Part shown: piece by piece, positions 1-62,032 of the stretch
Layout: each line of letters begins with the position of its first letter
How positions within the stretch are numbered: the first letter of the stretch is position 1
The notes under the pieces: generated by a model
What the model was told of the DNA's origin: nothing
Databases searched by the model: none
The model's input: only the letters and a program-made list of their open reading frames with translations
Translations under genes and position numbers: made by a program
Origin: Eremomyces bilateralis CBS 781.70
Lineage: Eukaryota
DNA: 64,000 bases
Strand: one strand, 5' to 3'
NCBI GenBank assembly: GCA_010015585.1
Contig: ML975150.1

Positions 1-1685
1 TTGCAGTTCAGATGTTCCCTTACTGCCGTTGAGCTCGGATTTAGACTCATACCGCATTTGCTCTTCTTCCAAGAGCCCGCCTTTTTGCAAGCATTTGACA
101 GCACGCTTCTCCTCAATAGCCACGTCTAGTGACTCCTCCACTGCGCGAACCACATCATCGACTTTGTTTAGAGCCATTACACCGAATCCGCTGGCTGGAC
201 TGGCTCCGACCGCCCCCGCCTCCTCCTCGTCATACATAGCATCGTCGAACATCTGCTTCAGTTGAGCTTCAGCATCCGCGAACTTGTGCGCCCTCTTCAT
301 GTCCGCCACTCTCCTCGCATGCTTCTTGCGCAACTCTTCCATTTCCCGCTCACCCTGCTCGACGAACTTATCGACGCGCTTCTGCACCGAGTCCAGTTGT
401 TCACGAGTGATCTTATTATAGGCAGGAATCGGTACAAGAGGGGCATCGTCAGCACTCAGATTGAGTTGATGGTTGTCCTTGACCCTGCTCTTATCCTTTT
501 CCAGGGTTTGAGGACCGGGAGTAGCGGTGTTTAGGCCGTCGGTTATTTGCCGTAATTGTCCGCTGAGACCAAGACCAAGGTCGAGCGGCTGGATCTTCTC
601 CGCCGCGAAAGTCGAGCTGAGGATTTCATCCATCCACACGTGATGTTGCTTGTATCGCAAAACACTGATCTCCTTGGGAGTCAAGTTGTCAAGAAGGTCG
701 CCTTGGTGCGCCACGTGTTCGTCGTATAAAGCCGGATCTTGTTCAACCATTGCATTCACCGGGGCGGTTCCGCCTGGTAATTGTGCTGGTGGTTGTTGCC
801 TTGCTCGTTTCGCCGGAGGTCCCGCCACCATCGGACCCTGTGCTTGCTGGTAGTACTGTGCAGCTGCTCTTGATGGACCTGCGGGCATCTGTTGCATCAT
901 TTGATTGGGATACATGGGACCCGGAGGTACCATGCCCGGCCCCATTGCTGGGCCATGGACGAACTTCACGTCGGGCCAGTTCGCACGATCTTTGAACATG
1001 AATTCCTTCCGGACGAGATGGCCCTGTCGCTCGACCATGCGGCGTTCCTGTAGGATCGCGTTTGTGTGTGGTTGCATGGGAAGGTTCATGACCGGAATGT
1101 GGTGCTGAGGGTCGGATTGGGAATAATGGACGATCCAAAGGGACGGGTCTGGATCCGGGCCGGTCGTAGAAGGAGACTTTCCGACAAGTCGGTAGCGTTG
1201 ACGGCTGTGAGATGCGACGTTCTCACCCGGACGATACCCAAAGCGGTGAATCAGGACTTCCATCGTCTTTGTGCCATTAGCGGATGCCCCCAGCGATGAG
1301 AATGAATGGATGCTTACATAACCTCGTAGTTCCATCGAATATGTCTGTTCTTGATCGCCCCACACGTAGCCATCGCTGGCAAAACGGCTCCCCAGGCGCA
1401 TCTGCGGTTGCCAGGCAAGGAACATAGTTCCGTCCCCTGGAGGAGCAAGAAACGTCCATGCCACCGGTCGGATATCATTGATGATTGAAGGGGCCTTCAA
1501 CAAGTATTCGAAAACTTGGTCTTGAGTGATCGTCTGGTAGATAGGGAAGCTATATGCCGAAAGCAAATGGATATGGGGTAGCTAAACGATGGTTAACTTT
1601 CTCTTTCTCGTCGCGAGAGGGTGGGAGCAGGACTGCGCGGTGAACGTACCAGGCTCGCTGGAACCCTGAAACTTGGGTCTTGCAT
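1..1685 (-). CDS. ssr4: SWI/SNF and RSC complex subunit Ssr4-like (DUF1750); 3' end runs off the window start; 2 introns
   Basis: Manual translation: ATG at 1685, MQDPSFRVPASL|LPHIHLLSAYSFP...YLLKAPSIINDIRPVAWTFLAPPGDGTMFLAWQP...FASDGYVWGD...RGY|TMEVLIHRFGY...RYRL...LVRKEFM...GDLLDNLTPKEISVLRYKQHHVWMDEILSS. This matches the Ssr4 family pattern. The long last exon is absent from the ORF track because it has no stop inside the window. Confidence 0.88.
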
Positions 1686-47916: not shown

Positions 47917-48417
47917 ATGGCCAGCTATCTCAACTACGTCACCTCCAATTACTCCCTTTCCCTCCTCTCTATCCCTGCCTATCACGTCCTCGCGCTTCTC
48001 CCCCATTTCTACTCCTTCCACCTCGGAACCCAAGGCGATTCCTCCAAATGGCGCAACGCCAACAGCCGTGGTCAAACACACGCGAAGGAGATCCAAACCC
48101 GTCTCTCGCCCGCGCAATACAACCGTTTTGAGCGTGCCCGCGCCGCCCACGCCAATGCCATGGAGAACCTGCCGCTGTTCGTCGCGGCCGTACTGGCAAG
48201 CAAATTCGTCGCCATCGCGAAGGGGGAGTCTGTCGGGGAAAGCCTGGGGACGGATGCGCTCGCTGTGCGATTGCTGCTGGCGAGGGCAGTGTACACGGCC
48301 ATGTATCTGTTCGTAAAGGATGACCGCGTGGCGGGGCTGAGGACGCTGGTGTGGTTGTATGGGGTACAACAGTGCTGGAAGTCGATCATCGGCGCCGCAT
48401 GGGCTCTGGCGCACTGA
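47917..48417 (+). CDS. MAPEG-family small membrane protein
   Basis: 166 aa with NYSLLSIPAY-like N-terminus, RARAAHANAMENLPLFVAAVLA, and LARAVYTAMY...LRTLVW. Confidence 0.85.
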   Translation: MASYLNYVTSNYSLSLLSIPAYHVLALLPHFYSFHLGTQGDSSKWRNANSRGQTHAKEIQTRLSPAQYNRFERARAAHANAMENLPLFVAAVLASKFVAIAKGESVGESLGTDALAVRLLLARAVYTAMYLFVKDDRVAGLRTLVWLYGVQQCWKSIIGAAWALAH

Positions 48418-48538: not shown

Positions 48539-51500
48539 CTACGCACGAGCACGATACCCTTCAGATCTCAGCCCCGCGACACTCCTCCACGGTCCTCTTG
48601 TCTGCTGCTCCCGAGTAGACGGCGACGAGGACGGCAGATGCTGAGAAGTCGGGGTTAGCGACGGCCTTCCAGCGATTTTGAGACCCCGCAGGCTTGCTTC
48701 CATCGATGCGATGTCATCAAACTCACTTGCGGTATGTGGCAGTCTTGATCCGGGCCGGACGTTCTCTTGACGGGTGTCCGCAGCCCACCCCGATGGAATG
48801 GCGAGGTCTTCCCCACCCGGGAGGCAGATATGCGTGGCGTCGAGGGTCTCTTGGATGTCGCGAAACAGGATGTCCATAGGACAGATGTAAGCGACCCGCG
48901 TGCTCTTGCACCAGGCCAGTACGTGACCACAGACGCGTCCGGATTCGTTTTGAATGACCCATGCTCCAGAATCGCCGCCAGCGCCAAATTCGCCACGAAC
49001 GGCCCAGCTGCGGGAGAAGGAGCGTCGTTTGTAGATGCGGACCGCGCCCATGGTCTCGTTAATCCTTCCTTCCTTGAGCCCGCTTGTGCGTCCGAAGCAA
49101 TGGACCGGACTGCCGCCGATCTTCCGGGAGTCGGCGATCTCCCGGGGATACTCGTCTTCGGCGGCAGAATACCCGTTCCGCGAGACTGGTTGCCGAAGGC
49201 TCGGACGCCATTGGTCTCTCCTGTTGCTGGGAGTTCGACGGAAACGGCCGCCTCCTTGAATAAGATTGTAAGGTTGCAGCCTCCCGTCGTCGATCTGGAT
49301 TAGACTCCAATCGATCTCATGTAATAGGTCATCGAACACCGCCCGTCGGATTCCTGAGGTAGCATGTATGTGGCCGAATCGATTGGAAAGGGTATGGTCT
49401 TCATCTCGATCATCTGGGTCTGGAAAGAAGTCCACATCCACATCTGTGAGCGCCGGTTGCGTAACAATGATATCTTCCCCTTCTCCCTTCGGTATCCCTT
49501 CGACATCACCTGCTGTTCCGTCTGTTCCGGTCTCGCTAGCGGCCCCATCATCGTCTTCAACGTCGGGCTCTTCATTGTCGTCATCCTCATTCGACGATTC
49601 GTCTGACAATTCAAATGGCGTCCATCCATCCATCGATGTGTCAACCGCCGTCCCAGAACCGATGGTCCTGAGAAGGAATTCAGGATCGAAGCCGTCACGA
49701 GCACTTGAGCGGGCGGGACTGTCATCGAGAACGTCGTTTCCATCGTCCGAATCGTCCGAATCGTCATCACTATCGCTTGGTGCATCTAAGATATGATGAA
49801 CGCTCATTCCGTAGGGCTTTCCGTCCACCATGATCACTCCGCCAAAAGAGACAGGAGGGAGATGGTGGTTCATGAAGGCCCCAATGGACGATCCACATAG
49901 GGGTTGTTCCTGGTAGAATGGATTGAGAGGCACCGGCTCATCGCTATCACTGTCCATGGACCGATGCAAAGGATGCGCCGGACGGTTGGTGCCACGGCTC
50001 GTGACCTTGGAGCGTCGAATCTTGCCTTTGCGAACTTTCAAATCGAACATGGAATGATCATAATCAAGCGATCGATTGATCGTGCCCTTCACCTTCGCCG
50101 TGCTGCTGCAAGTGACGAATATGGTTGGTCGAGCACTTGCCGGTGTATCGCCAACGCCGAAGAGGTCGATGCTCACCGTCTCATCAGAGTTGCGGAGCGC
50201 CCTACCAACCACGCGCTCAAGACCTGGAAGCACCTCATTGTGCCACTGGTCTAGTACCTCTTCAGGAAATGGAGTCTGCTGAATTCTCAGCTTGCGTCGC
50301 GGTTTTGGCTCGGGTGGGGTTATGAAAACAGCCGAAGTTTCTGTTGAGATGTCCCGGCTATCGGGTACAATGTAGTCCGCCTCCCTTGCTTCATTGTGAG
50401 AGTTCCTTGATTTGTCGATGTGGGTCGAAGTGCCACTTTCACCGCGACTTCGATGCGGGTCCATAGCAATGGAAACTTGCTGCCTGCCTTCGGTAATCGT
50501 GGATTGAATAGGATTGACCTGTTGTTTGCGATCGCGGCTCTCTCGCCACTGCTGGTGCGCGACACTAACTTTGCGACGATACTCTGTCAAAGAGAGTTTC
50601 TTGGTATGGTGAGAACGCCATGCACGAGCAATAATGTTTGCTGCTCGTTTGTACCGGGATGAGACCGAAAGGACCGAGACGTTGTCCTGTTTATCTGTTG
50701 ATGCGACAGCCTGTGGCTCGGAAAGGTCTTCTTCGGTGATGATTTCTGGGTTTTCATTCCACCGAGCAGTTTGTCTGCGGAGGAAGCGTCCGGGATTCGC
50801 AGGCAAAGAATTGGATCTCCGTAAGTCCATCACGTGCGGGCTTGGTGGTTCTTTTACTGCAGCGGCCGACCGCGTGGGCCCTCGTTGACCCTCTAGGAAA
50901 TTGGAGACGGAGGTGCTGATCGAAGCTGCATCATCTTTAACACCAATTTCCTCGTCCTCATCCAACAAGCAGCATCGTCGCAACCGGTTCAAGGCGCGCT
51001 CATAGAGCAAGCGGGAAGGCTCCGACGTCTGCAAACCCGTGGCCGTCTTCACAGATGCACCAAGAAAGTCCTGGACTACGTGCATATACGCCGTGCCGCA
51101 TTTCGCAGCGAGTTTCTTCACGAAAGTGTCTTCAATCTTCAGTTTGAACTCGGTCAGTGAGTATCTCGGCTTGAAAATCTCAGCAATTGGCAACCACATT
51201 CCAATCTCGAGGAGGATGAGGCCGAGACTATAGAGGTCAAAATGCAGACCGTAGGACTTGCTGTTCCGTTGATTCGCCCGAGGGTCGTTGGGATGGCGGT
51301 AGATGTTCTGATTGGGGGCAGAAGGGGGCGGTTCGACGAGCGAGTCGGAGAAAAAGTCGAAGGAGCACAAGTACGGATTCCTCATGTCATGATTGGAGTA
51401 TGTGTCTCCCAGGCTCTGGGTAACCGCAGCCGGCTTTTTGAAAAAGACGATGTTGCTACTGTTGATATCTTTGTGGACGAGCTCTTCATCATGAAGTCGA

Positions 51501-52747
51501 TGAAACGCTCGCACGATGTTGTACGCGAGTTTGAACCGGATTTCGAGCGGAGGAAGTGTCGGGATCACCCTTCGAGAGGAGGTGTGGACTCTCGCGGTAG
51601 TTTTGATGAGTTCGAAGAGCGACGTCGGTCGAAACTCATCGAGGGACTTCTGTGAGTCCCAGGCGCCACCGTAGACGGATTTGGGTAGCTCGTAGACCAT
51701 TCCGTAACGTGGCTGCCTTGGATCCTCAAAATAGCCTAGGCAGGGCAATACTCCGCTCGAGGCCGCATCGGAAGACGACGTGGTGGAGAAGTACGTGAGG
51801 AATGCCTCCAGTCTATCCTGCGGAAGCCGGACTCCCGTATCTCGATAGATGGGATCAAAGTTACAGAATTCAATCAGGACAGGGACGGTGGAGGAATTGA
51901 ATTCGGCGAGTTTGGAAGGGATCCCGGGTGATCCGCGAGTGTAGTGGCCGATCATTCGCGAATTCGCGCGAACAAAACTCTCATATGGGGGTGGCTGCTC
52001 TGGGGGTAGGGAGAGACATGAGTAGTCGATCCGATGGGGTAGCGACATCGTCGCCAGGTCGGCCTTATGGTACGGCTCATAGGTGGAGACGAGGGTCTTC
52101 GACGTGGAAACTCTACTTACGCCGCGGGTAGATGGAGGGGTTGAAGGTGATCCGGTGAATTCATCGGACAGAAAGAGGCTGCGGTGGAATGATAATGAGG
52201 ACCTCGACGGAGGATCGTCTTGGGCCAAGTGGGTCGGATAGGTGCCCTGTTGGACGGCTTTCCGTGACCGTGAGAGGTCGTATAGAATGTCGATGGAATT
52301 CGTAAGATCTTTCGCTAGCTCTTCATACCGCGCCCGGTTGGATGCGGACCATGTCGGTCTAGTAAAATCGACCTTTTCCGACGTGATATCCTTGGGGGCG
52401 TTGAAGCGGACGCGTAGGGTCAGCGATTCCACTTCGGTCAGGATGTCTTTGATGGTTCTCATCACATCTTCAACCATGTCGGTATAACCGGCGCGAGCTA
52501 TGGATTCATCGATGGTCTGTTGGCTCCCTTCGGTCCATTCCAGGCCCCACGTGACCAACCGGTTCTTCTGAATGCGATAGCGTCGATGCAAAGCATGGAA
52601 CTCGGGGGTGTCCAAAACCCTCTCTTGTTCCGTGATGGACTGGTAAGAATGTTTGGTGTCGGAATACAGTTGGGTCAAGTCATGTTTCCGAGCAAGGCCT
52701 CCCCCTAGAACGCTCTCCATTGTCGCATGCGACGCCATGTCCTGCAT
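48539..52747 (-). CDS. HeLo-like domain + protein kinase-like (probable pseudokinase) + IQ-like motifs + trypsin-like (Ssy5/S64-like) serine protease fusion, 1402 aa, intronless
   Basis: HeLo-like RYRIQKNRLVTWGLEW; kinase-like LPCLGYFEDP...RFKLA...VHKDINSSNIVFF...YRHP...DLYSLGLILLEIGMW; protease-like SIGA...GGVIMVDGKPYGMSVHH...IDWSLI...GRTSG...GDSGAWV. Confidence 0.88.
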   Translation of the reverse strand: MQDMASHATMESVLGGGLARKHDLTQLYSDTKHSYQSITEQERVLDTPEFHALHRRYRIQKNRLVTWGLEWTEGSQQTIDESIARAGYTDMVEDVMRTIKDILTEVESLTLRVRFNAPKDITSEKVDFTRPTWSASNRARYEELAKDLTNSIDILYDLSRSRKAVQQGTYPTHLAQDDPPSRSSLSFHRSLFLSDEFTGSPSTPPSTRGVSRVSTSKTLVSTYEPYHKADLATMSLPHRIDYSCLSLPPEQPPPYESFVRANSRMIGHYTRGSPGIPSKLAEFNSSTVPVLIEFCNFDPIYRDTGVRLPQDRLEAFLTYFSTTSSSDAASSGVLPCLGYFEDPRQPRYGMVYELPKSVYGGAWDSQKSLDEFRPTSLFELIKTTARVHTSSRRVIPTLPPLEIRFKLAYNIVRAFHRLHDEELVHKDINSSNIVFFKKPAAVTQSLGDTYSNHDMRNPYLCSFDFFSDSLVEPPPSAPNQNIYRHPNDPRANQRNSKSYGLHFDLYSLGLILLEIGMWLPIAEIFKPRYSLTEFKLKIEDTFVKKLAAKCGTAYMHVVQDFLGASVKTATGLQTSEPSRLLYERALNRLRRCCLLDEDEEIGVKDDAASISTSVSNFLEGQRGPTRSAAAVKEPPSPHVMDLRRSNSLPANPGRFLRRQTARWNENPEIITEEDLSEPQAVASTDKQDNVSVLSVSSRYKRAANIIARAWRSHHTKKLSLTEYRRKVSVAHQQWRESRDRKQQVNPIQSTITEGRQQVSIAMDPHRSRGESGTSTHIDKSRNSHNEAREADYIVPDSRDISTETSAVFITPPEPKPRRKLRIQQTPFPEEVLDQWHNEVLPGLERVVGRALRNSDETVSIDLFGVGDTPASARPTIFVTCSSTAKVKGTINRSLDYDHSMFDLKVRKGKIRRSKVTSRGTNRPAHPLHRSMDSDSDEPVPLNPFYQEQPLCGSSIGAFMNHHLPPVSFGGVIMVDGKPYGMSVHHILDAPSDSDDDSDDSDDGNDVLDDSPARSSARDGFDPEFLLRTIGSGTAVDTSMDGWTPFELSDESSNEDDDNEEPDVEDDDGAASETGTDGTAGDVEGIPKGEGEDIIVTQPALTDVDVDFFPDPDDRDEDHTLSNRFGHIHATSGIRRAVFDDLLHEIDWSLIQIDDGRLQPYNLIQGGGRFRRTPSNRRDQWRPSLRQPVSRNGYSAAEDEYPREIADSRKIGGSPVHCFGRTSGLKEGRINETMGAVRIYKRRSFSRSWAVRGEFGAGGDSGAWVIQNESGRVCGHVLAWCKSTRVAYICPMDILFRDIQETLDATHICLPGGEDLAIPSGWAADTRQENVRPGSRLPHTASEFDDIASMEASLRGLKIAGRPSLTPTSQHLPSSSPSTREQQTRGPWRSVAGLRSEGYRARA

Positions 52748-53888
52748 ATCGTGGAAAGGAGATTATTCAGGGTCTTCTTGGGATCTTAGGATCTCTGCGG
52801 TACAATGGGCCATGAAAGCCGAGGGGTTTGACCAAGCTGATATGAAATTCGGAAATATTTAACGCAAATGACAGCAGAAGAATTGAACATACATCAATAC
52901 AGGACGATAGACAGCAAGCATGGGGAATGATATTGGATAGTTGATGATCAAAGGCGGAGTGAAATGTTGGAGCCTAAAGAGGGAAGCGTCAGTCGTCAGT
53001 CGTCAGCGGTCCAAGCCTCCTTCAAGAGGCACGTGCGCCACAGTGATGCTGGTGTGAGTGGTGTCTGGTGAGTGCTGAGTGGTGGTTCAGGGGTTCATGT
53101 TGCCTTACTGCCTCATGTCTGGTGCAGGTGAGTGTCTCAGTGTAGCAGGCGCAGCCGCGCACAGGGCACTTAGTCAGGTGCGCCTATCAGATGCAAAGTA
53201 GAATTGCAATAAGTGCACAGCCACTGACGCAATTCTATATCTGAGTACATCACGTGCAGCTGCGCCTCTTATCATCAATCCATCCTCCACCTCCAATGAC
53301 ATCCCACATGGGCCTCGCAGAGAGGCCTGACGGGCGTATGAATCTCTCTCTCTCTCCCCCCCCCAATGACATCCGTACATTCCTCAGCCTTAAATCAGTA
53401 GTAGACATCAGTTTACATACATGCTTGACTTGTCTATGTTACACTTTCCCCACCCTTACATCTAACAGACCTTAACATCTTTGGTGTCTTTCGAGAGGGG
53501 CCGGCATCAACCACAGAAGAGAAGACGCCGAACCCCCAGATACCTGCCCACATGCTTCAAATGAATCAAATCATATGTAGAGTACAAATAATTGCTCCCC
53601 GCCCGCTTTTGTCAATGAAATCTTACAACTCCGCACTGTTGTTCGAGGTGGCATGGTGGCAATCGCAAACTCTGCTATGTTCAGTCCTGTGATCGTCATG
53701 CTGGCTCCATGAGTGCTCACTTGGAGACGAAAACACGCCCACTTTCCTGTCAATTCATCTGTCATATCCCATTCGAACGCTTTGGATCATGCCCACACCA
53801 GCCACAACCCTGATCTTCGCTCGATGCTGGCTGGGAACGAGTCAGCACTTGATGAACAGTTCCCAGTGCCGTCGTCCAGTCCTAGGCT

Positions 53889-56800
53889 CTAATCGAGCAA
53901 GTTCAATCTAGAATCCGGTGGCCCTGGGAACGCGTCAGCCGTGTCATTGGACAGTGGCTGCACAACAATATTGTCCTGTCCGAAGTCCACGAGAAGGTCG
54001 TGATCCTCCTCGACCGATGGTGGATCGATGTTCCTGGCCGGCTTAGGAGTGGGAGCCCCCCCCGGCACGGCTGGCACGCCCGCCTTCAGTCGGTATGTGC
54101 TTTCTATGGAGATTTTCTTGTGCGCGATGGCGCGTGTCCCGGAAGAAAGGCGGGGCGGTAGGGTTTGCCGGTTGGTAGCCGTTGTTCCACCATTCCTATC
54201 GGGGCTGTTGGATGCGGGTTGGATGGCAGGTGACGGCGCATACATACGCTGGGCTGGTGTAAAACGTTGATGGGCCCCGCGTGCGAGTGCCGCTGCTTCC
54301 GCCGGCGTAGGTCCAGGAGTCGTGGACGGCTGAGCCTGGTATGAGGTTCGGTGAAAGATACTTCCGAAATTTTGGGTGGTTTCTACCGTCGAGTTCGGGC
54401 GGTGAAGCTCTCCCCGCAGGGCCTGGATTTCCGTTTCAAATCCGTTCTGGGCGAACTCACGCCAGCCGGCCACATGAACTTCCTGTTCTTCTTGGGTTAC
54501 GTCTGCAAGGAAACCGACCGCCCTCGGCGATCCTTCAGTTTGACGAGCCGTCTGGCTAAGAGCAGAGTTTGATTCGGGGCACATGAAACATCGACATGGC
54601 TCGCCGCAAATTTGACCACAAGAATGGCCACATGGAAGGCTTCGCTCGCATGACGATCGGCAAACGATTTGGTTGTGCGCAAAGCTACGGAATGTCAGGG
54701 AAGAGACGAAAAAATTGCGATATGACTTACGGATGGCAGCGAAGCTGGCATGGATGTCCACAGTCAAGCGGCGTGTCGCACTCCTCTCTACAACCTCCAG
54801 TCAAGTCGGCCCAATCATCGGGATCTATCATTATATATTAGTGAATGTCTAGGCAAGAAGTATGTCGATAAGCAGCTCACCCTCTAAGAACATTTTTCGG
54901 TCATGATTCTTGCAAGTAATCGGAAGCCAGAACCCGACACGCGATTTCGGAATGGCCCCTTGGGCCGTTTTGTGCCGGTACATCATGACGCAAATTTCAC
55001 CCCAGGTGTTGCTCTCCCTCGCAAGCAACTCGGCGTTTCCGAACATGTAGAAGCCACGTTTAGCTCGGGAGATGGCAACACAAACGCGGTTGTCAACCTT
55101 GAGAAACCCAATAGTCCCGTTGTCATTGCTTCGAACCAGGGACAGAAGTACAATGTCATTTTCCTCGCCTTGGTATGAGTCGACGGTTACAACGTTGTGC
55201 CTTAGGTTCCGGAGATTGTTGCGTTGACGGAGTAGCCGGAGAAGGCGCTTGCGTTGTCCGTTATAGAAGGTCAGAATGGTCATTTTGGTGGTGTCAATCC
55301 CGTTCATCCATAGATACTCATAGAACCCGACCACCATTTGGGCTTCTTGCTCGTTCATGGCAGACATGTAGTCGTCTCGTGATTCGGGATAGGTGTGGCT
55401 GAAGAAGAACGAATTGCAGCCGCCCATGCCAGGTACGGGAGGTCGGTTGGCCGGATCTTTGACCGAGTCATGGTCTTTGATGAGATCTCCATAGATGGGT
55501 CGCAAGATTCGACGGATCTCGGGAATCATGCGACGCTGCCTCCGGAGTGCATTATACTCGACGCCATTGTTGACCAACCGCTCGAAGAGTGACAAGTTTA
55601 AGTTGACCGGGTCTCCTTCGTGGAACCGGATGTTGCAATGGGGTCGGAGTTGCAAGTGGTCTCCAACCAGAATCAAATGATCCAGAGACGGAATGCATGC
55701 CGCAATCACTGGCGCCTCTAGAGTCTCCGCGGCTTCCTCGATCAGGACGATCTTCGGCTTGATTACTGCGACCATGGCGCGATACTTGCTGAAGCCGGTG
55801 GTGGTCATGCCGATAACCCTCTGTTGGGCAAGGATCGGAACGTCTCGCTCGAACGTTGCCAGCCGTCGTTTTGTTGCGACCTCGTCGTAGATTTTCGCCT
55901 TGATTTTGAACAGTTCGGTAACCTTCTTGGTCACCTGGCGTTGAAGATAGCCGAATACACTCGGTCGATCCTTGAAATCGATTTTGTACAAGTCCGTATT
56001 CCGAAGCCTCTTCTCGCATTCCGCATCCGAAAGTTGAACCCGCCCTTTTGCCGTGAAGTTGTCATGAATGCTGATCGTGGTTCCTTTGAGGACCTCGAAT
56101 TCTTCTTCATCGGTTGCGAATGTTTCCGCCTCCATTTCCCTGAGCTGTTCGAACTCAAGCTCCGCCTCTTCGAATTCGTATCCGAAATTATCACTCTCAA
56201 AAGATTTTCGCTTGAAGGTGAGGAGACTTCCAAGCCAGCTCCCCAAGAGTCCGGACTCTCCTTTGTCAGTCGTATCTGTCACGGCCGCCCATTCCGTGCC
56301 ACCTCGTAGCAGAGACTGTGCTTGCTCGTCGGAAATGATTCCGAACTTCCTCAAAAACTCGGCATCAATCATGCATTTTGACCCAAGCTTGATCGGCTCG
56401 AGTATCAACGCGATATCCCCGGCCAATGCTTGAAGCTCTTTCCTTGCTGCGATGAGAGAACCCGACAGAAATCGTGGCATATCCAACCCGCAGCGAACTT
56501 CGTACAAGGTCCTCTTCTTGACTACATCCACGTCTTTGGAACGGCCACCAAGGCGGAGGAAGCCTGGCTCAAACTCTGCGATATGACGTAGAAGTTGATC
56601 CAGAGCATGGTTGGTCTGACAAGTCACGACGATCGGCGGATCTTCATCCGCCATATTATCAATCAGGGTTCGGATAGCTTGCACCGAAACATAGGTTTTG
56701 CCAGTTCCCGGAGGGCCTTGGACGATCGCTATCTTTTTCGTCATGATCCGGTTCAAAGCGCTCCATTGAGACACATCCATGACGGTTCTTTTATCTTCGC

Positions 56801-57866
56801 TCGGCCACTCGGTAAGGATATTCAGTCGACTGGTTTCGAATCGACCTTGGTCATCTTTCGGCATGATTGCACGAAGGTCGATGGTAGGATTCGCTTGCAG
56901 ATATGCGGGTGCTTCGACATGTGATTGAGTATCGACGAGATGTTCGGCCAAAGGAAACCTTTTCATGTCAGCTTACATCTTGAGTTCCGAGGACCTACTC
57001 ACTTCTCATGCTGCATTCGTTGCAGTGCCACTAGCGTGTGTTTTGCTGCCTCAAAATAGCTTTGTCGTTCCTCGAGCATGACATACTCGATATCCGGATC
57101 TAGTATCAAATCTTCCGATCGGGCAAAGAACAAATCGACCTCTGGGGGATTTTGTTGGACTCCACTCAAAGGTCGGGCGGCTATGGTTGCGACAAGACAT
57201 GTAGTTCGGAAACAGTCATCGCGAGGACTGAGAACCACTAGTGAACCTTGAATCAATCGACTGGACTGTTCCCAATGGACACGTTTTCCGATGCGCTGAA
57301 TGGAAAAGACAACTTTAACTGCCACCCCCATGGTAGAAGGGATCACAGCGGTTACATGAACCTTCTTCCATCAATCCTTCAGTTTCATAATTTGGGATCT
57401 CACTTACTCGGTCATAGAATCCAGCGGTAGATCCCAAATCGGTTTCGCATGCCCCGGGATCTGATCTGAGCTGTTGAACCGCATCACGGAGGGGCTTGAC
57501 CGTATCACGGCGTAGCAGCTTATAGTGCGTTTCCAGGTACTTCTCCTTAGATTTCCAGGGACCATCGACTAGATTCCTCGGGCCAGAATAGTTGTCGGGG
57601 TCGTAGTCTAGAGGGTCGGTCTCGTCAAGGAACTCATTCGCGGTTGGCACCTCGGATTCCGATATCCAAGGCATGACAGGATTGGAACCATATTTGGACG
57701 GCGATTTGGACGCATATGTTCGGATCCTATTTTGGAGGGCACGGAATTCGACGAGATTGGTACGAACCGTCTCAATAAGAGGGTGACCGTCAGCAGACGT
57801 GCGATTAAAGTGAAATCGTCCATCAGGCGCACTCGATTCATGCCTTGGTGGGAATTCTCTCGGCAT
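53889..57866 (-). CDS. hrr1: Hrr1/SAD-3/ZNFX1-like Upf1-type SF1 RNA helicase with C-terminal NF-X1 zinc fingers; 4 introns
   Basis: Motifs YLETHYKLLRRD, WEQSSRLIQGSLV, QGPPGTGKT, TNHALDQLL, EEAAE, LVGDHLQLRP, SLFERL, VDSYQGEE and NRVCVAISRAK; zinc fingers CDTPLDCGHPCQLRCH|..CERSLPCGHSCGQICG. Confidence 0.92.
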
Positions 57867-59829
57867 GATCGGCTCTTGATGAGTCGTGCGGTGGAAGCAC
57901 TACGACGCGGAAAGATGGAGTCAGTGATGGCTCCGACCCATTACGCTGGTGGGGGAGTCGACGCACCTTATTCTTGGTCCGAAACGGTGGCTAAGAGATA
58001 GGAAGGGGGTGAAGGAAGGCGAGGAGCCAAAACCTTTTCCCAAACAGAAGAAGGCCGCTCCCTTGGATGCTGCTTTGGGTACTGTTTTGGATACTGACTG
58101 CGGCACTGAGTATTGGACTAAACAGAAGAGGTTTCTCGACCTCCTCAATTTTGGAATTCTGCAGTTTGGCTTGTAAAAACAGGTTTAATGGGTGTGGAGG
58201 GAAATTGAGGAATCCGGGAGAAATTAACAACGACAAACATCAGAGTGTAGTCGGATCATGTGGTTGATCGCCACGAGCGAAAGATTGCACGCCGCTGAGA
58301 ACCGTACAGAATCCAATGGCTCAAGGCACGACGAAAAGTACCCACCGGTGTCGCCTGCTTGTCTAATTGAGTTCTGTTTCTGCTACTTTTGCCAGTGTAG
58401 TATTTAGCCACCTGCTTCAACTCGCTGAGAAAGAAACGGGCCAGGGAGCTGCAAGCTATAACAACCCTCTGCTTCAAGCGAGTCGTCAAAGTGGAATTTC
58501 CGACACTGGCTGGATGACTGAATACTCTCAAACATACTGATCACTGGAACACTTCAAGTATAGGGTGTGTGTAAAAATAATTGACAGTCAAACGGGGAAG
58601 AGGAGGACGCATTAGCAGTAGAATAAGAAGAATTGGGCTGCAATGAGCATCCAGGAGAAGTTCAAGACATGCAAAGTGAAGTTGCGCAAAGAAGATCGAT
58701 ATATCAAGAATGTCCGTGCGACCTGGAGGTTGGAGAGGGTCAATACCATACCTCTGATTCCCCTGTAAGACGACAGGGTATTCCTTAAGCAGTCAGGATG
58801 TGGAGATGAGAGCTCAGATGACCTAATGGGTAGATGCATGCTGGTATTCATTATCCTTTTACTCCCACATCCCATCATGATTGGAGGATGATATACCATA
58901 CCCTTGGTCTCTCAATGGGATCGTTGCAAGATATTGGTCATACTGTCCGTCAGGATAGATACAGCTGCTCTCTGTATCCTCGGTTGTGTTGGTCATATAT
59001 TGTCCTAGAACGGAGGCGATGGAATGCCGTCGAGAGGCTCCTTGTCGCATCGAAGATCATTGCAAGCAGCGGCAAGGCTGTCTTCAAGATTCGTTACCGC
59101 TACTTATCCGAAACTGCATGCATGAATCAAGTATCCAAGTCACAAATCAACTAGACACTTCCCAAGCACTGAGCCCTGAAGCCAAGGCGGATGGGTACTG
59201 GTCCTGTGTACTCCATCGTGTGTCTTCGGTCGGGTACCGGAAGCATCAAACAAAGAGCAGAGGAGTCCACAGCCAAATAGGATAGTCACAAGATGGTTAA
59301 ATCATGATGCACGTAGGCTATAGATACAACAGAATGGGGATCCCATGAAGTCATGAATGGTCTGATTGCTTGAGGATGACATGATTAACGATGTGTCGAG
59401 AACTCGAGATGCGTGAAGCCGCGAACGAGGTTGAGTTTGGCACTCGAGCATAAACAAACCATACTGTAAATGGAATAGCGTCTACATCCAAAAGGAGCAT
59501 AGCGTTGTATCAAGCCTTACCAGCCGCAATGCGGATGCGCTCCATCATCCCTGACCGACAGTGACAGCGTATGAGCAGTATGGCTTCCCCACGATCTGGT
59601 TCAATGAAGTAAACGATTCATACAACCCGGAGCGCATTGAGGGCACTACATTTGACTCTCTAGTCGTGTCGCCATCTCCTCCCTACATGCGAACCAAGCA
59701 TGTAGAGAGCGATGAAATGACCCATCCACACACTTCTTTGTAACCTCCCGTTCCCTTTGAACCGTGGATTCTACCATAACGCCATTCCGACCTCCCACCA
59801 ATTCACCGCATGCGATTATTGACGAAGCC

Positions 59830-62032
59830 ATGGCCTTCGAGGATGATGAAGAGAACGGCAGCGGTAATGAACCCACCCGGCTGTACCCATACTTCATTGC
59901 TAATGTTCTTCCCAGGTTCTAGCTCGGATGAAGACCAAGATGAACAGATGATGGACGCTGACAATGCCGATGATGGTGCAGATGCGGAGGCAGATGCCGA
60001 GGGTGATGGAGAAGAGGATGCTGATGGCGACAACGATGATGATGATGATGATGGGGACAATGATGATGACGACCATGACCAGGAGGACGCCGATTCGCAA
60101 GGAGGTGCACAATCCATGAAGCCTCCTGCACGACCACCGACATCGATGCCAAATGGTCTTTCACCGAGGCACCAGCCGAATGCGAATGGTGTCATGACAA
60201 ACGGGGATGCCCACCCGGAGGACCAGGTCAAACCTCCAACTCCCCAGGGAAATTCCACCCCGATACCCTTTCGACCAAGTGTTCGACCCGAGATGCTCAC
60301 GGCCCCAACTTACGACATTATTCCCACCATCGCTGCTCCTCACAGCACATCTATCAATGCAGTGTGTTCTACATCGGACATGAGATGGGTCTTTACGGCC
60401 GGCACAGATGGATATATTCGGAAGTTCAATTGGGTGGACACTGCGAATGGAAAACTGGCTCTCACCGTCGCGCAAAGGCACCCATTCGTGGATAGTGTTA
60501 CGAAGGCCGGTGTACTCCTAAGTTATTGGGACAATGAAGAAGCTCCAGGTACGGCCTATGACTCGGAAGAGCATTGGTTACGAAAGCTGACGAAACAGAT
60601 CGCACGCCTCTGGATGAAGATACTCCGCCGTCCCCAATTTACTCTCTTGCAGTCCACCATCAGGGACTTTGGATACTCTCGGGGTTGGAGAATGGAGGTA
60701 TCAACCTACAATCTGTACGTCATAACGAAGGGACGAGGATCGCAGCATTGCAAAAGCACACGTCCGCCGTTTCGGTATTGTCACTGGCAGACGACGAGAC
60801 TTCGGTGCTCTCTGGAAGCTGGGACAAGACCATTGTAAACTGGGACCTCAATACGGGCCAAGTGGTGCGCACATTTGAAGGAAGCGGGAGTCAGATTTCG
60901 GCCATCGAGCGACGACCCCAGTCGAGCCTCCCGGTGCCTGAGGAATTGGCTTCATACCGACCGGTACCAAGTTCGACATTCTCGTCAAACTATGATTCTA
61001 AACCTTCGGCGAATGGATTTACGATGAACGGTACCACCGCCGACGATCATTCTTTACCTCGAGAGGATCGACCAAGCGACGTTCTCCCGAACGGCGAAGA
61101 TCCCCCCGGCGGTTCTCCGTCACTCAACTCTCTTTTCGGCGACGAGGACGATGAATTCTCTAGAGCCATTGCGAACGGGATTCAAGCTAATGATGACGAG
61201 GATGCGGAAGGAGATGCGAATATGCAAGATGCTGGCGGACCCGTACAGCCACCCACACAAGATACTGCTGACCAGACCCTTCCAAACGGGGAACGGAATT
61301 CACCAGTTGCCGAAGCACCACCCACAAACGATGGCGAGAACTTGAATGGACACGAGAAAGCTCAAGAATCGGGTTCGTGGCCAAATGGTCTCCCTCTCTC
61401 CGATGAACCGCGCCATGCACAGGATGCCACCGACTCAACCTCAAAACCCATCGACTCCAACCGAAATACCTTCCTCGACGCCTCAATCGACGGCACGATT
61501 CGCATTTGGGATCAACGACAACAAAATCCGATTGCTCGGATTCTACCTGGTCCAGGTGTACCACCCTGGTGTATGAACGCGTGCTGGTCACCGGATGGAA
61601 ACTTCATCTACGCCGGTCGCCGGAACAACACTGTCGAAGAATACAGTCTTGCGCATGGACTAAAAGCGCCGAGTCGAACATTTAAATTCCCATATGGTAG
61701 CGGAGCAGTGAGCGCAATCAAAGCAATGCCGAATGGGAAACATTTGGTTTGGTAAGTTCCGCTACAATCCGGTCGGAATAGGAGTCTAATAGTTTTCTAG
61801 CGCATCGCATGATATCCTACGGCTATATGATCTTAAAGACCAGGAGGAAACCAAAACACGACACTCGGTCGTTCCCTTCTTGATTATTCCGGGTCATCGT
61901 ACTGGCGTCATCTCCCAGTTGTACATTGATCCCTCATGCACCTTCATGATTTCGACCGCAGGGAACCGAGGGTGGGAAGGGAATTCTACGGAGGTACTAC
62001 TAGGCTATGAGATTGGCGCATCGAAAGCATAG
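59830..62032 (+). CDS. SPT8: SAGA complex WD40 subunit Spt8; introns about 59864-59915, 60549-60598 and 61752-61800
   Basis: Acidic N-terminus, then YDIIPTIAAPH, LTVAQRHPFVDSVTKAGVLLSYWDN, LSGSWDK, PPWCMNACWS, and CASHDILRLYDL...PFLIIPGH...GNRGWEG...LGYEI. Confidence 0.96.

Follow-up and report, generated by a model that had tools for sequence, protein, structure and literature searches.

A stretch of 64,000 nt from contig ML975150.1 of Eremomyces bilateralis CBS 781.70 (GCA_010015585.1), called the window throughout, carries on its minus strand one long open reading frame (ORF) whose product joins a HeLo-like helical bundle and a kinase-like fold to a chymotrypsin-like serine protease. The ORF very probably encodes the orthologue of SltB, the signaling protease of the Pezizomycotina-specific Slt pathway, in a Dothideomycete-type fungus. 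An initial annotation of the same ORF had proposed a self-activating cell-death effector, a claim that is weighed below. The ORF and the features of its product are the following, where pLDDT is the predicted local distance difference test score of the AlphaFold models.

48539..52747, minus strand: the probable sltB orthologue, an uninterrupted and intronless ORF of 1402 aa including the stop codon
52250..52681, minus strand: HeLo-like helical bundle, aa 23-166, with helices at 23-39, 48-72, 79-85, 89-115 and 135-166 in the AlphaFold model
52049..52231, minus strand: disordered Ser/Pro-rich linker, aa 173-233 (pLDDT <50), preceding a conserved PPPY (aa 252-255)
50948..52039, minus strand: pseudokinase-like domain (DUF7580 / protein-kinase fold), aa 237-600, identified by Pfam and structure matches
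50306..50947, minus strand: linker, aa 601-814, poorly conserved in a 28-row alignment, with IQ-like motifs at aa ~700-745 (50522-50650)
50288..50335, minus strand: predicted autocleavage region, aa ~805-820, placed by homology with SltB residues ~690-705
50027..50290, minus strand: alpha/beta subdomain preceding the protease core, aa ~820-907 (pLDDT 95-98), including the invariant W835
48812..49909, minus strand: serine protease core of chymotrypsin fold (PA clan), aa 947-1312, identified by VIA and Foldseek matches
49793-49798, minus strand: candidate catalytic His, H984-H985 (GMSVHH), at the start of a short helix that follows a strand
49469..49783, minus strand: acidic, mostly disordered insert, aa 989-1093, between the His and the Asp, with 37 D+E and 4 K+R in 105 residues
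49310..49312, minus strand: candidate catalytic Asp, D1146 (HEIDW), equivalent to A. nidulans D1036
48968..48970, minus strand: catalytic Ser, S1260 (GDSGAW), equivalent to A. nidulans S1142

The single intronless ORF of the initial annotation was recovered on re-translation, and it spans 1407 aa from stop to stop. Translation probably starts at M10 (52718-52720), because homologues begin at this position. All of the motifs quoted initially are present where they had been placed, except that two ranges were off by 1-2 nt: GMSVHH lies at 49793-49810 as given, whereas HEIDW (49307-49321) and GDSGAW (48959-48976) correct the earlier Asp and Ser ranges by 2 nt and 1 nt, respectively.

A search with the whole protein found 218 full-length relatives at E<=0.001, far more than expected by chance, and the ORF is real. 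The best 120 of these 218 all have E<=1e-235, lengths of 1046-1601 aa and identities of 38-50% to the window protein; they come nearly all from Dothideomycetes, together with some lichen-forming ascomycetes, and the relatives listed carry names such as 'protein kinase domain-containing', 'DUF7580 domain-containing' and 'HeLo domain containing'. With the C-terminal 506 aa as the query, 574 cluster representatives match at E<=0.001 and 178 at E<=1e-30, mostly at the C-terminal end of proteins of 1100-1500 aa, and the named members include Onygenales and one Sordariomycete. Homologues are widely distributed in Pezizomycotina, as the initial annotation had judged probable. Many gene models in public databases, of 680-740 aa (41-45% identity to aa 10-600) or of 400-700 aa that cover the protease half alone, resemble SltB orthologues that gene calling or contig ends have split or truncated, and not true stand-alone forms.

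SltB of Aspergillus nidulans (AN6132, 1272 aa) is described as a pseudokinase/chymotrypsin-like protease restricted to Pezizomycotina (Mellado et al. 2015, PMC4557415; Mellado et al. 2016, PMC4985261), and the initial remark that no functional characterization was known does not hold for this family. A BLASTP comparison with the stored protein labelled 'AN6132.2 / protein sltB [Aspergillus nidulans FGSC A4]' gives two colinear high-scoring segment pairs, in which aa 16-564 align with SltB 8-578 (32% identity, E 1e-74) and aa 795-1317 align with SltB 680-1199 (38% identity, E 1e-101). The two proteins have the same succession of pseudokinase half, linker and protease half, the latter with its acidic insert in both. 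Besides the GDSGAW motif, eight SltB residues for which a phenotype or role has been published align with identical residues in the window protein (SltB/window numbering): S1142/S1260, G1140/G1258, F1126/F1244, G1156/G1274, D1036/D1146, H1033/H1143, H1008/H1118 and W722/W835.

The phylogeny agrees with this identification. A 28-row maximum-likelihood tree was inferred with a quick IQ-TREE run (LG+G4, midpoint root) from rows picked for named taxa out of 336 long sequences. The window protein falls inside a Dothideomycete clade of 15 rows and A. nidulans SltB inside a Eurotiomycete clade of 8 rows, each with a Shimodaira-Hasegawa-like approximate likelihood ratio test (SH-aLRT) support of 100; therefore, the gene tree follows the fungal classes. 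A paralogue with SltB architecture that has another substrate and role, outside the Slt pathway, would be favored by the modest identity of the best database matches (only 41-50%), by the long end branch of the window protein (0.92) and by its weak placement within the Dothideomycete clade (SH-aLRT 80). This alternative is nevertheless very improbable. Named species mostly occur once among the matches listed, Mellado 2015 reports one sltB per genome, co-occurring with sltA (PMC4557415), every residue with a known SltB role is conserved, and a tree that follows the classes also speaks against it.

Four observations weigh against the SltB assignment itself. First, identity to the characterized SltB is only 32-38%. 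Second, the window protein exceeds A. nidulans SltB by 130 aa, chiefly through its linker, which is ~110 aa longer than the Aspergillus one and has IQ-like motifs that are absent there. Third, Pfam finds 0 families at E<=10 on aa 815-1320, so that no protease model matches the window protein. Fourth, kinase Asp residues kept here are lost in Eurotiomycetes, including A. nidulans, so that the N-terminal half may not work identically to that of A. nidulans SltB.

The N-terminal half was modeled with AlphaFold as aa 1-640 (pLDDT 76.0; predicted template modeling score, pTM, 0.75). The model has five helices within aa 23-166, disorder over 173-233 and then the kinase fold. On this fragment, Pfam HeLo (PF14479) scores 23.9 bits against a cut-off of 23.2, compared to only 17.9 bits on the whole window protein. 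When the 28 family members are scanned singly, HeLo appears in 28/28 at E<=1, with a best E of 1.9e-9, and it is detectable in A. nidulans SltB itself (E 1.1e-4, 22.5 bits). The HeLo match is therefore secure for the family, although in the window protein itself it is borderline. Moreover, the nearest named Atlas clusters to the bundle are HeLo (0.90, 0.87 and 0.86), and some Aspergillus orthologues are already annotated 'HET-s/LopB domain protein'. Overall, the helical HeLo-like N-terminus proposed initially is present.

The bundle differs from the HeLo domain of HET-S/HET-s of Podospora anserina in its first part. Although both share the PF14479 profile, aa 49-120 match profile positions 32-104, leaving positions 1-31 unmatched. 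The hydrophobic N-terminal segment is the membrane-inserting part of HET-S. The window protein has no such segment, with a maximum 19-residue Kyte-Doolittle mean of 0.45 in aa 1-170, and the same measure exceeds 1.6 in only 4/336 family members. The fold matches listed for the 640-aa model are filled by kinases, and the absence of a HET-S structure from them speaks neither for nor against a HET-S-like fold of the bundle.

Downstream of the bundle and the disordered linker, P253 and Y255 of the PPPY motif are invariant in a 77-row alignment, and P253, P254 and Y255 are invariant in the 28 rows. The kinase-like domain follows. On the N-terminal fragment, DUF7580 just passes its Pfam cut-off (27.7 bits, cut-off 27), whereas Pkinase (E 1.6e-4, 21.7 bits, cut-off 31.7) falls short of its own and covers the C-lobe alone (aa 402-515); across the 28 members, DUF7580 is found in 26/28 and Pkinase in 22/28. 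When the 28-row profile is compared with Protein Data Bank (PDB) sequences, kinases alone make up the best 60 of 115 matches at E<=10. Foldseek matches the N-terminal model to MerTK, BRAF and IRAK4 at E about 1e-7, while VIA-align matches it to CRAF (Z 19.7, root-mean-square deviation, rmsd, 4.1, 267 residues aligned) and to the rat MLKL pseudokinase (6vbz_A, Z 16.9, rmsd 4.4, 247 aligned, 19% identity). Full-length MLKL (4btf_A) aligns over model residues 26..591 with Z 15.8 and 342 residues aligned at an rmsd of 20.7; therefore, the domain order is common to both proteins while the relative arrangement of the domains is not. The MLKL-type architecture of the initial annotation accordingly stands as a domain order, and we infer that the N-terminal half (~600 aa) is an MLKL-type module.

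Proteins of this architecture also exist on their own. Stand-alone proteins of 530-600 aa annotated HeLo+DUF7580, such as BCIN_11g04170 of Botrytis cinerea, match aa 10-600 with 24-34% identity, E values of 1e-28 to 1e-17 and, for most, 85-96% cover; they are presumably the PskA family of Mellado 2015. Like the window protein, MLKL and the HeLo+DUF7580 proteins of the type of A. nidulans PskA/AN7985 have a helical bundle followed by a kinase-like fold, but they do not have a protease half. Deletion of pskA gave no slt phenotype (PMC4557415). According to a 2025 review, kinase or pseudokinase domains accompany some HELL domains (PMC12881547).

The degree to which the kinase-like domain has lost catalytic residues varies between lineages. 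The initial description of its motifs proved accurate: HKDINSSN is retained at 51452-51475, VLIEF (51866-51880) stands where VAIK is expected and SFDFF (51350-51364) where DFG is expected, all on the minus strand. Neither a Gly-loop nor the VAIK lysine is recognizable in the window protein, where the 28-row alignment has VLIEF/VLVEY. Among the hallmarks of an active kinase (Gly-rich loop, VAIK Lys, HRD Asp and DFG Asp), only the HxD Asp and the D-x-F Asp are thus present, as part of the retained set H425, D427, N432 and D464 (HxDxxxxN ... D-x-F). D427 is found in 110, N432 in 117 and D464 in 119 of 119 Dothideomycete-type relatives. In Eurotiomycetes, the HxD Asp is replaced by N in 110/118 and the DFG-like Asp by A in 97/118, and A. 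nidulans SltB has the same N and A (27/27 in its section). Judged by these counts, the pseudokinase is 'dead' to a different extent in the two lineages, and nucleotide binding may be retained in the Dothideomycete lineage.

The retained residues are an argument for another reading, in which the Dothideomycete 'pseudokinase' is a nucleotide-binding or weakly active atypical kinase that gates the protease, by analogy with the control of the Ssy5 prodomain by casein kinase; activation of Ssy5 depends on prodomain phosphorylation (PMC3145550, PMC3639058). Further, processed SltA is phosphorylated by an unidentified kinase (PMC4985261). On balance, such a kinase, which might for example phosphorylate the acidic Ser-rich insert, SltA or its own chain, is a slim prospect. 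The Gly-loop and VAIK lysine are missing, Pfam Pkinase stays under its cut-off on the C-lobe alone, the two Asp positions have been replaced in a fully functional A. nidulans SltB, and the phosphorylation of SltA is independent of SltB in that species (PMC4985261).

IQ-like motifs of the calmodulin-binding type occur in the second linker (aa 601-814) of Dothideomycete orthologues. They are degenerate in the window protein and missing from the Aspergillus linker, which is shorter; Pfam detects IQ (PF00612) in 8/28 members at E<=1, with a best E of 0.02.

The protease half was recognized through its fold. The model of aa 815-1320 (pLDDT 80.6, pTM 0.82) is good except in the acidic insert, where pLDDT is <50 at model residues 189-227, 241-245 and 250-262. 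VIA-align against 48,161 chains matches the model to rice NARROW LEAF 1 (NAL1; 7y77_A, Z 20.6, rmsd 4.3, 287 residues aligned over model 14..499), to the Lysobacter L5 protease (5mrt_B, Z 16.3, rmsd 2.6, 191/193 residues aligned over model 133..498) and to NAPase (Z 15.2); 90 chains have Z>=8, and the 50 rows listed are almost all chymotrypsin-fold proteases. The 55 Foldseek matches at E<=0.001 include NAL1 (E 5.4e-9) and alpha-lytic protease (E 9.1e-5). Both methods thereby confirm the C-terminal chymotrypsin-like domain of the initial annotation, a double beta-barrel, and its trypsin-like fold; the Peptidase_S64 match that it anticipated was not found by Pfam. At the sequence level, the 28 members together hit 28 families, and the 25 matched most often include no protease family. 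The sole S64 match is a weak one around the Ser of the A. fumigatus orthologue (E 0.25), and the C-terminal domain has 0 matches to PDB sequences at E<=10.

Among solved structures, the model comes nearest to the plant protease NAL1 (PDB 7y77, 8pmg and 8pn2) and not to a bacterial chymotrypsin-like enzyme; the match covers the pre-core subdomain and both barrels. The two proteins have 9-14% identity. NAL1 comes from a plant, its aligned chains (349-409 residues) are too short to accommodate a HeLo/pseudokinase half or so large an insert, and the window protein has no Nal1_C Pfam match. The likeness in fold does not show a common function.

The fold and the conservation of the candidate residues point to a catalytic triad. 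Conservation was counted in two alignments, one of 77 rows and one of 336 rows of long relatives, of which 335 were compared with the window protein. H984, H985 and D1146 are each conserved in 335/335 relatives (77/77 in the smaller alignment), H1118 in 334/335 and H1143 in 328/335. S1260 is a Ser in 277/335, with 53 gaps and 5 other residues, and in 72/77 with the remaining 5 being gaps. The A. nidulans sltB gene has an intron just before the catalytic Ser motif, which the window frame does not have, and we suspect that many of the gaps at S1260 are gene models that mishandle this intron. GMSVHH, EIDWSL and GDSGAW, the triad motifs of the initial annotation, remain the best candidates after these counts.

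Two His residues compete for the catalytic role with others proposed in A. nidulans. Since the alignment to model 133..498 takes in an entire alpha-lytic-type protease, the first barrel starts ahead of the acidic insert. The stretch aligned to the N-terminal third of alpha-lytic-type proteases, which corresponds to the first barrel, contains the His residues H961/H962 and H984/H985 only. In the model, a strand at 163-168 is followed by a helix at 170-173, with H984/H985 at the start of the helix, and such a strand-then-helix position is the canonical place of the catalytic His. In the sequential numbering of alpha-lytic protease, the number of residues between the beginning of the aligned chain and H984/H985 would also be roughly as expected. 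We infer that the triad is H984 or H985 with D1146 and S1260, and that the acidic loop of ~105 aa interrupts the first beta-barrel between the His and the Asp, in line with the long acidic insert noted initially. In A. nidulans numbering, the modeled His would correspond to H874/H875, not to the published candidates H1008/H1033 or H925/H939. The published model places D1036 beside S1142, and H1033A causes only a partial loss of function (PMC4985261); a catalytic His at H874/H875 would explain why the loss is only partial.

The studies of A. nidulans SltB supply the likely mechanism. SltB self-cleaves close to Met-692, which parts the pseudokinase and protease halves, and S1142A gives a null phenotype with no processing (PMC4985261). 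SltB is needed to cut the transcription factor SltA from 78 to 32 kDa (PMC4557415, PMC4985261), and the protease fragment 692-1272 alone is non-functional (PMC4985261). Null mutants of sltB are viable and sensitive to cations and alkaline pH (PMC4557415, PMC4985261). Processed SltB predominates in non-stressed, healthy mycelium, with no condition reported to curtail processing, and N- and C-terminally tagged forms are described as cytoplasmic, without membrane association (PMC4985261). As late as 2024, SltB was described as a serine protease with a pseudokinase prodomain (PMC11011638).

By orthology, the window protein would be made as a zymogen in which a HeLo-like bundle and pseudokinase half (~600 aa) are joined by a variable linker to a chymotrypsin-fold serine protease, the protease half being structurally related to plant NAL1 and alpha-lytic-type proteases and having a weak sequence link to Ssy5/S64. 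Self-cleavage in cis would take place shortly before the protease half, at about aa 805-820 in the window protein, where the BLASTP alignment sets V807 opposite M692 and R818 opposite the conserved K703. Only protein that has the N-terminal half would then be able to shorten SltA, a zinc-finger factor whose long form is inactive and whose short form is active. The short form would induce sltB itself along with the genes that confer tolerance to Na+, K+, Li+, Mg2+ and alkaline pH. Self-cleavage, SltA cutting and gene activation have been demonstrated in A. nidulans and would carry over to E. bilateralis by orthology. Throughout, the HeLo-like bundle would be part of a regulatory or scaffolding prodomain, not a membrane-breaking executioner.

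A parallel to this scheme is Ssy5 of Saccharomyces cerevisiae (MEROPS S64), the protease of the SPS amino-acid sensor, which the SltB authors themselves drew (PMC4985261, PMC4557415). Like SltB, Ssy5 is a chymotrypsin-like protease with a large N-terminal prodomain, described as 381 aa (PMC4985261), which cleaves itself and then cuts a latent transcription factor. Among the Atlas neighbours of the C-terminal domain is a cluster in which 10% of members have Peptidase_S64. The two systems differ in that the window protein has no S64 Pfam match, SltB and Ssy5 have only 25% identity over 68 aa, and no SPS partners are reported in Aspergillus (PMC4557415).

The death-effector proposal assigned another role to the same domains. 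It held that the protein may be a sensor, switch, protease and executioner in a single chain, whose autoproteolysis frees a membrane-damaging HeLo domain in the manner of MLKL or HET-S. The family-wide HeLo match and the score of the window fragment just above its cut-off agree with this proposal, as does the order of bundle and pseudokinase, albeit with the large rmsd of the 4btf_A alignment; further, autoproteolysis is real in the orthologue (PMC4985261). Self-cleavage is therefore the part of the proposal that stands, while release of the HeLo domain does not, since cleavage near residue 692 leaves the bundle joined to the pseudokinase (PMC4985261). MLKL acts as an executioner upon phosphorylation; the N-terminal half of SltB, by contrast, stays in the cytoplasm and does not kill in vivo (PMC4985261). 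The processed form predominates without stress and without death in A. nidulans, the null and S1142A mutants are viable and merely stress-sensitive, and the reported forms show no membrane association (PMC4985261). Because processing is constitutive, the fragments are cytoplasmic and the nulls are viable, the death-effector proposal is not supported. In addition, the low N-terminal hydropathy, the unmatched first part of the HeLo profile, a conserved gene whose tree follows the fungal classes and its place among housekeeping genes all argue against it, and we regard it as extremely improbable.

The neighbouring genes within the window encode RNA recognition motif proteins, a MAPEG protein, an SF1 helicase, SPT8, a threonyl-tRNA synthetase, MBOAT and MFS proteins, Ssr4 and similar products. 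A het/NLR/gasdermin cluster context was considered and rejected, the neighbours in the window being housekeeping genes. No C2H2 SltA-like gene was found among the scanned window ORFs, and sltA and sltB need not be linked. The neighbours with assigned coordinates are the following.

1-1581, minus strand: SWI/SNF subunit Ssr4, at the window edge
47917-48417, plus strand: ORF of the MAPEG family (membrane glutathione-transferase-like; Pfam E 1.7e-14), convergent to sltB
53889-54800, minus strand: open frame of 303 aa directly upstream of sltB, with no Pfam match at E<=0.01
54852-56972, minus strand: SF1 helicase (AAA_11/AAA_12), a housekeeping neighbour
59780-61752, plus strand: SPT8 beta-propeller, a housekeeping neighbour whose coding sequence runs over two frames, probably owing to an intron

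The MAPEG ORF ends ~120 bp from the sltB stop codon. The upstream region of sltB contains a short G-run and a (GA)n microsatellite at ~53340-53365. Sites of the AGGCA type, to which SltA would bind, are uninformative in a promoter of ~1.1 kb, where chance alone yields a given 5-mer about twice.

The family is already known, its founding member having been characterized genetically and biochemically since 2015-2016. The literature searched contained no relevant (fungal) link of SltB with HeLo and none with MLKL, nor was 'DUF7580' found, with subscription-only papers and figures (Mellado 2015 Fig. 6, Figs S4-S5) lying outside its reach. 'HeLo' has 0 occurrences in PMC4985261, and the passages of PMC4557415 are likewise silent. 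That the SltB prodomain resembles HeLo and MLKL is therefore no more than a detail that had gone unremarked.

A new self-activating death effector would have been striking; the main result is that the gene is explained as SltB. For work on the Slt pathway, it means that the 'pseudokinase prodomain' starts with a HeLo-like bundle in MLKL domain order, and that the modeled fold would place the catalytic His before the acidic insert. A further proposal is that the N-terminal half is a repurposed MLKL-type module, paralogous to the stand-alone HeLo+DUF7580 proteins of Pezizomycotina and serving as the missing input device of the Slt pathway, which would sense endomembranes or ion stress, with the acidic loop tuning the protease. 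We consider this rather unlikely, though sensing of endomembranes or ion stress by the bundle would fit the unexplained suppression of vps/ESCRT nulls by slt mutations. If true, the published triad would need correction to H874/H875 (A. nidulans numbering), and a module of the cell-death type would have been domesticated as the regulatory prodomain of a housekeeping signaling protease.

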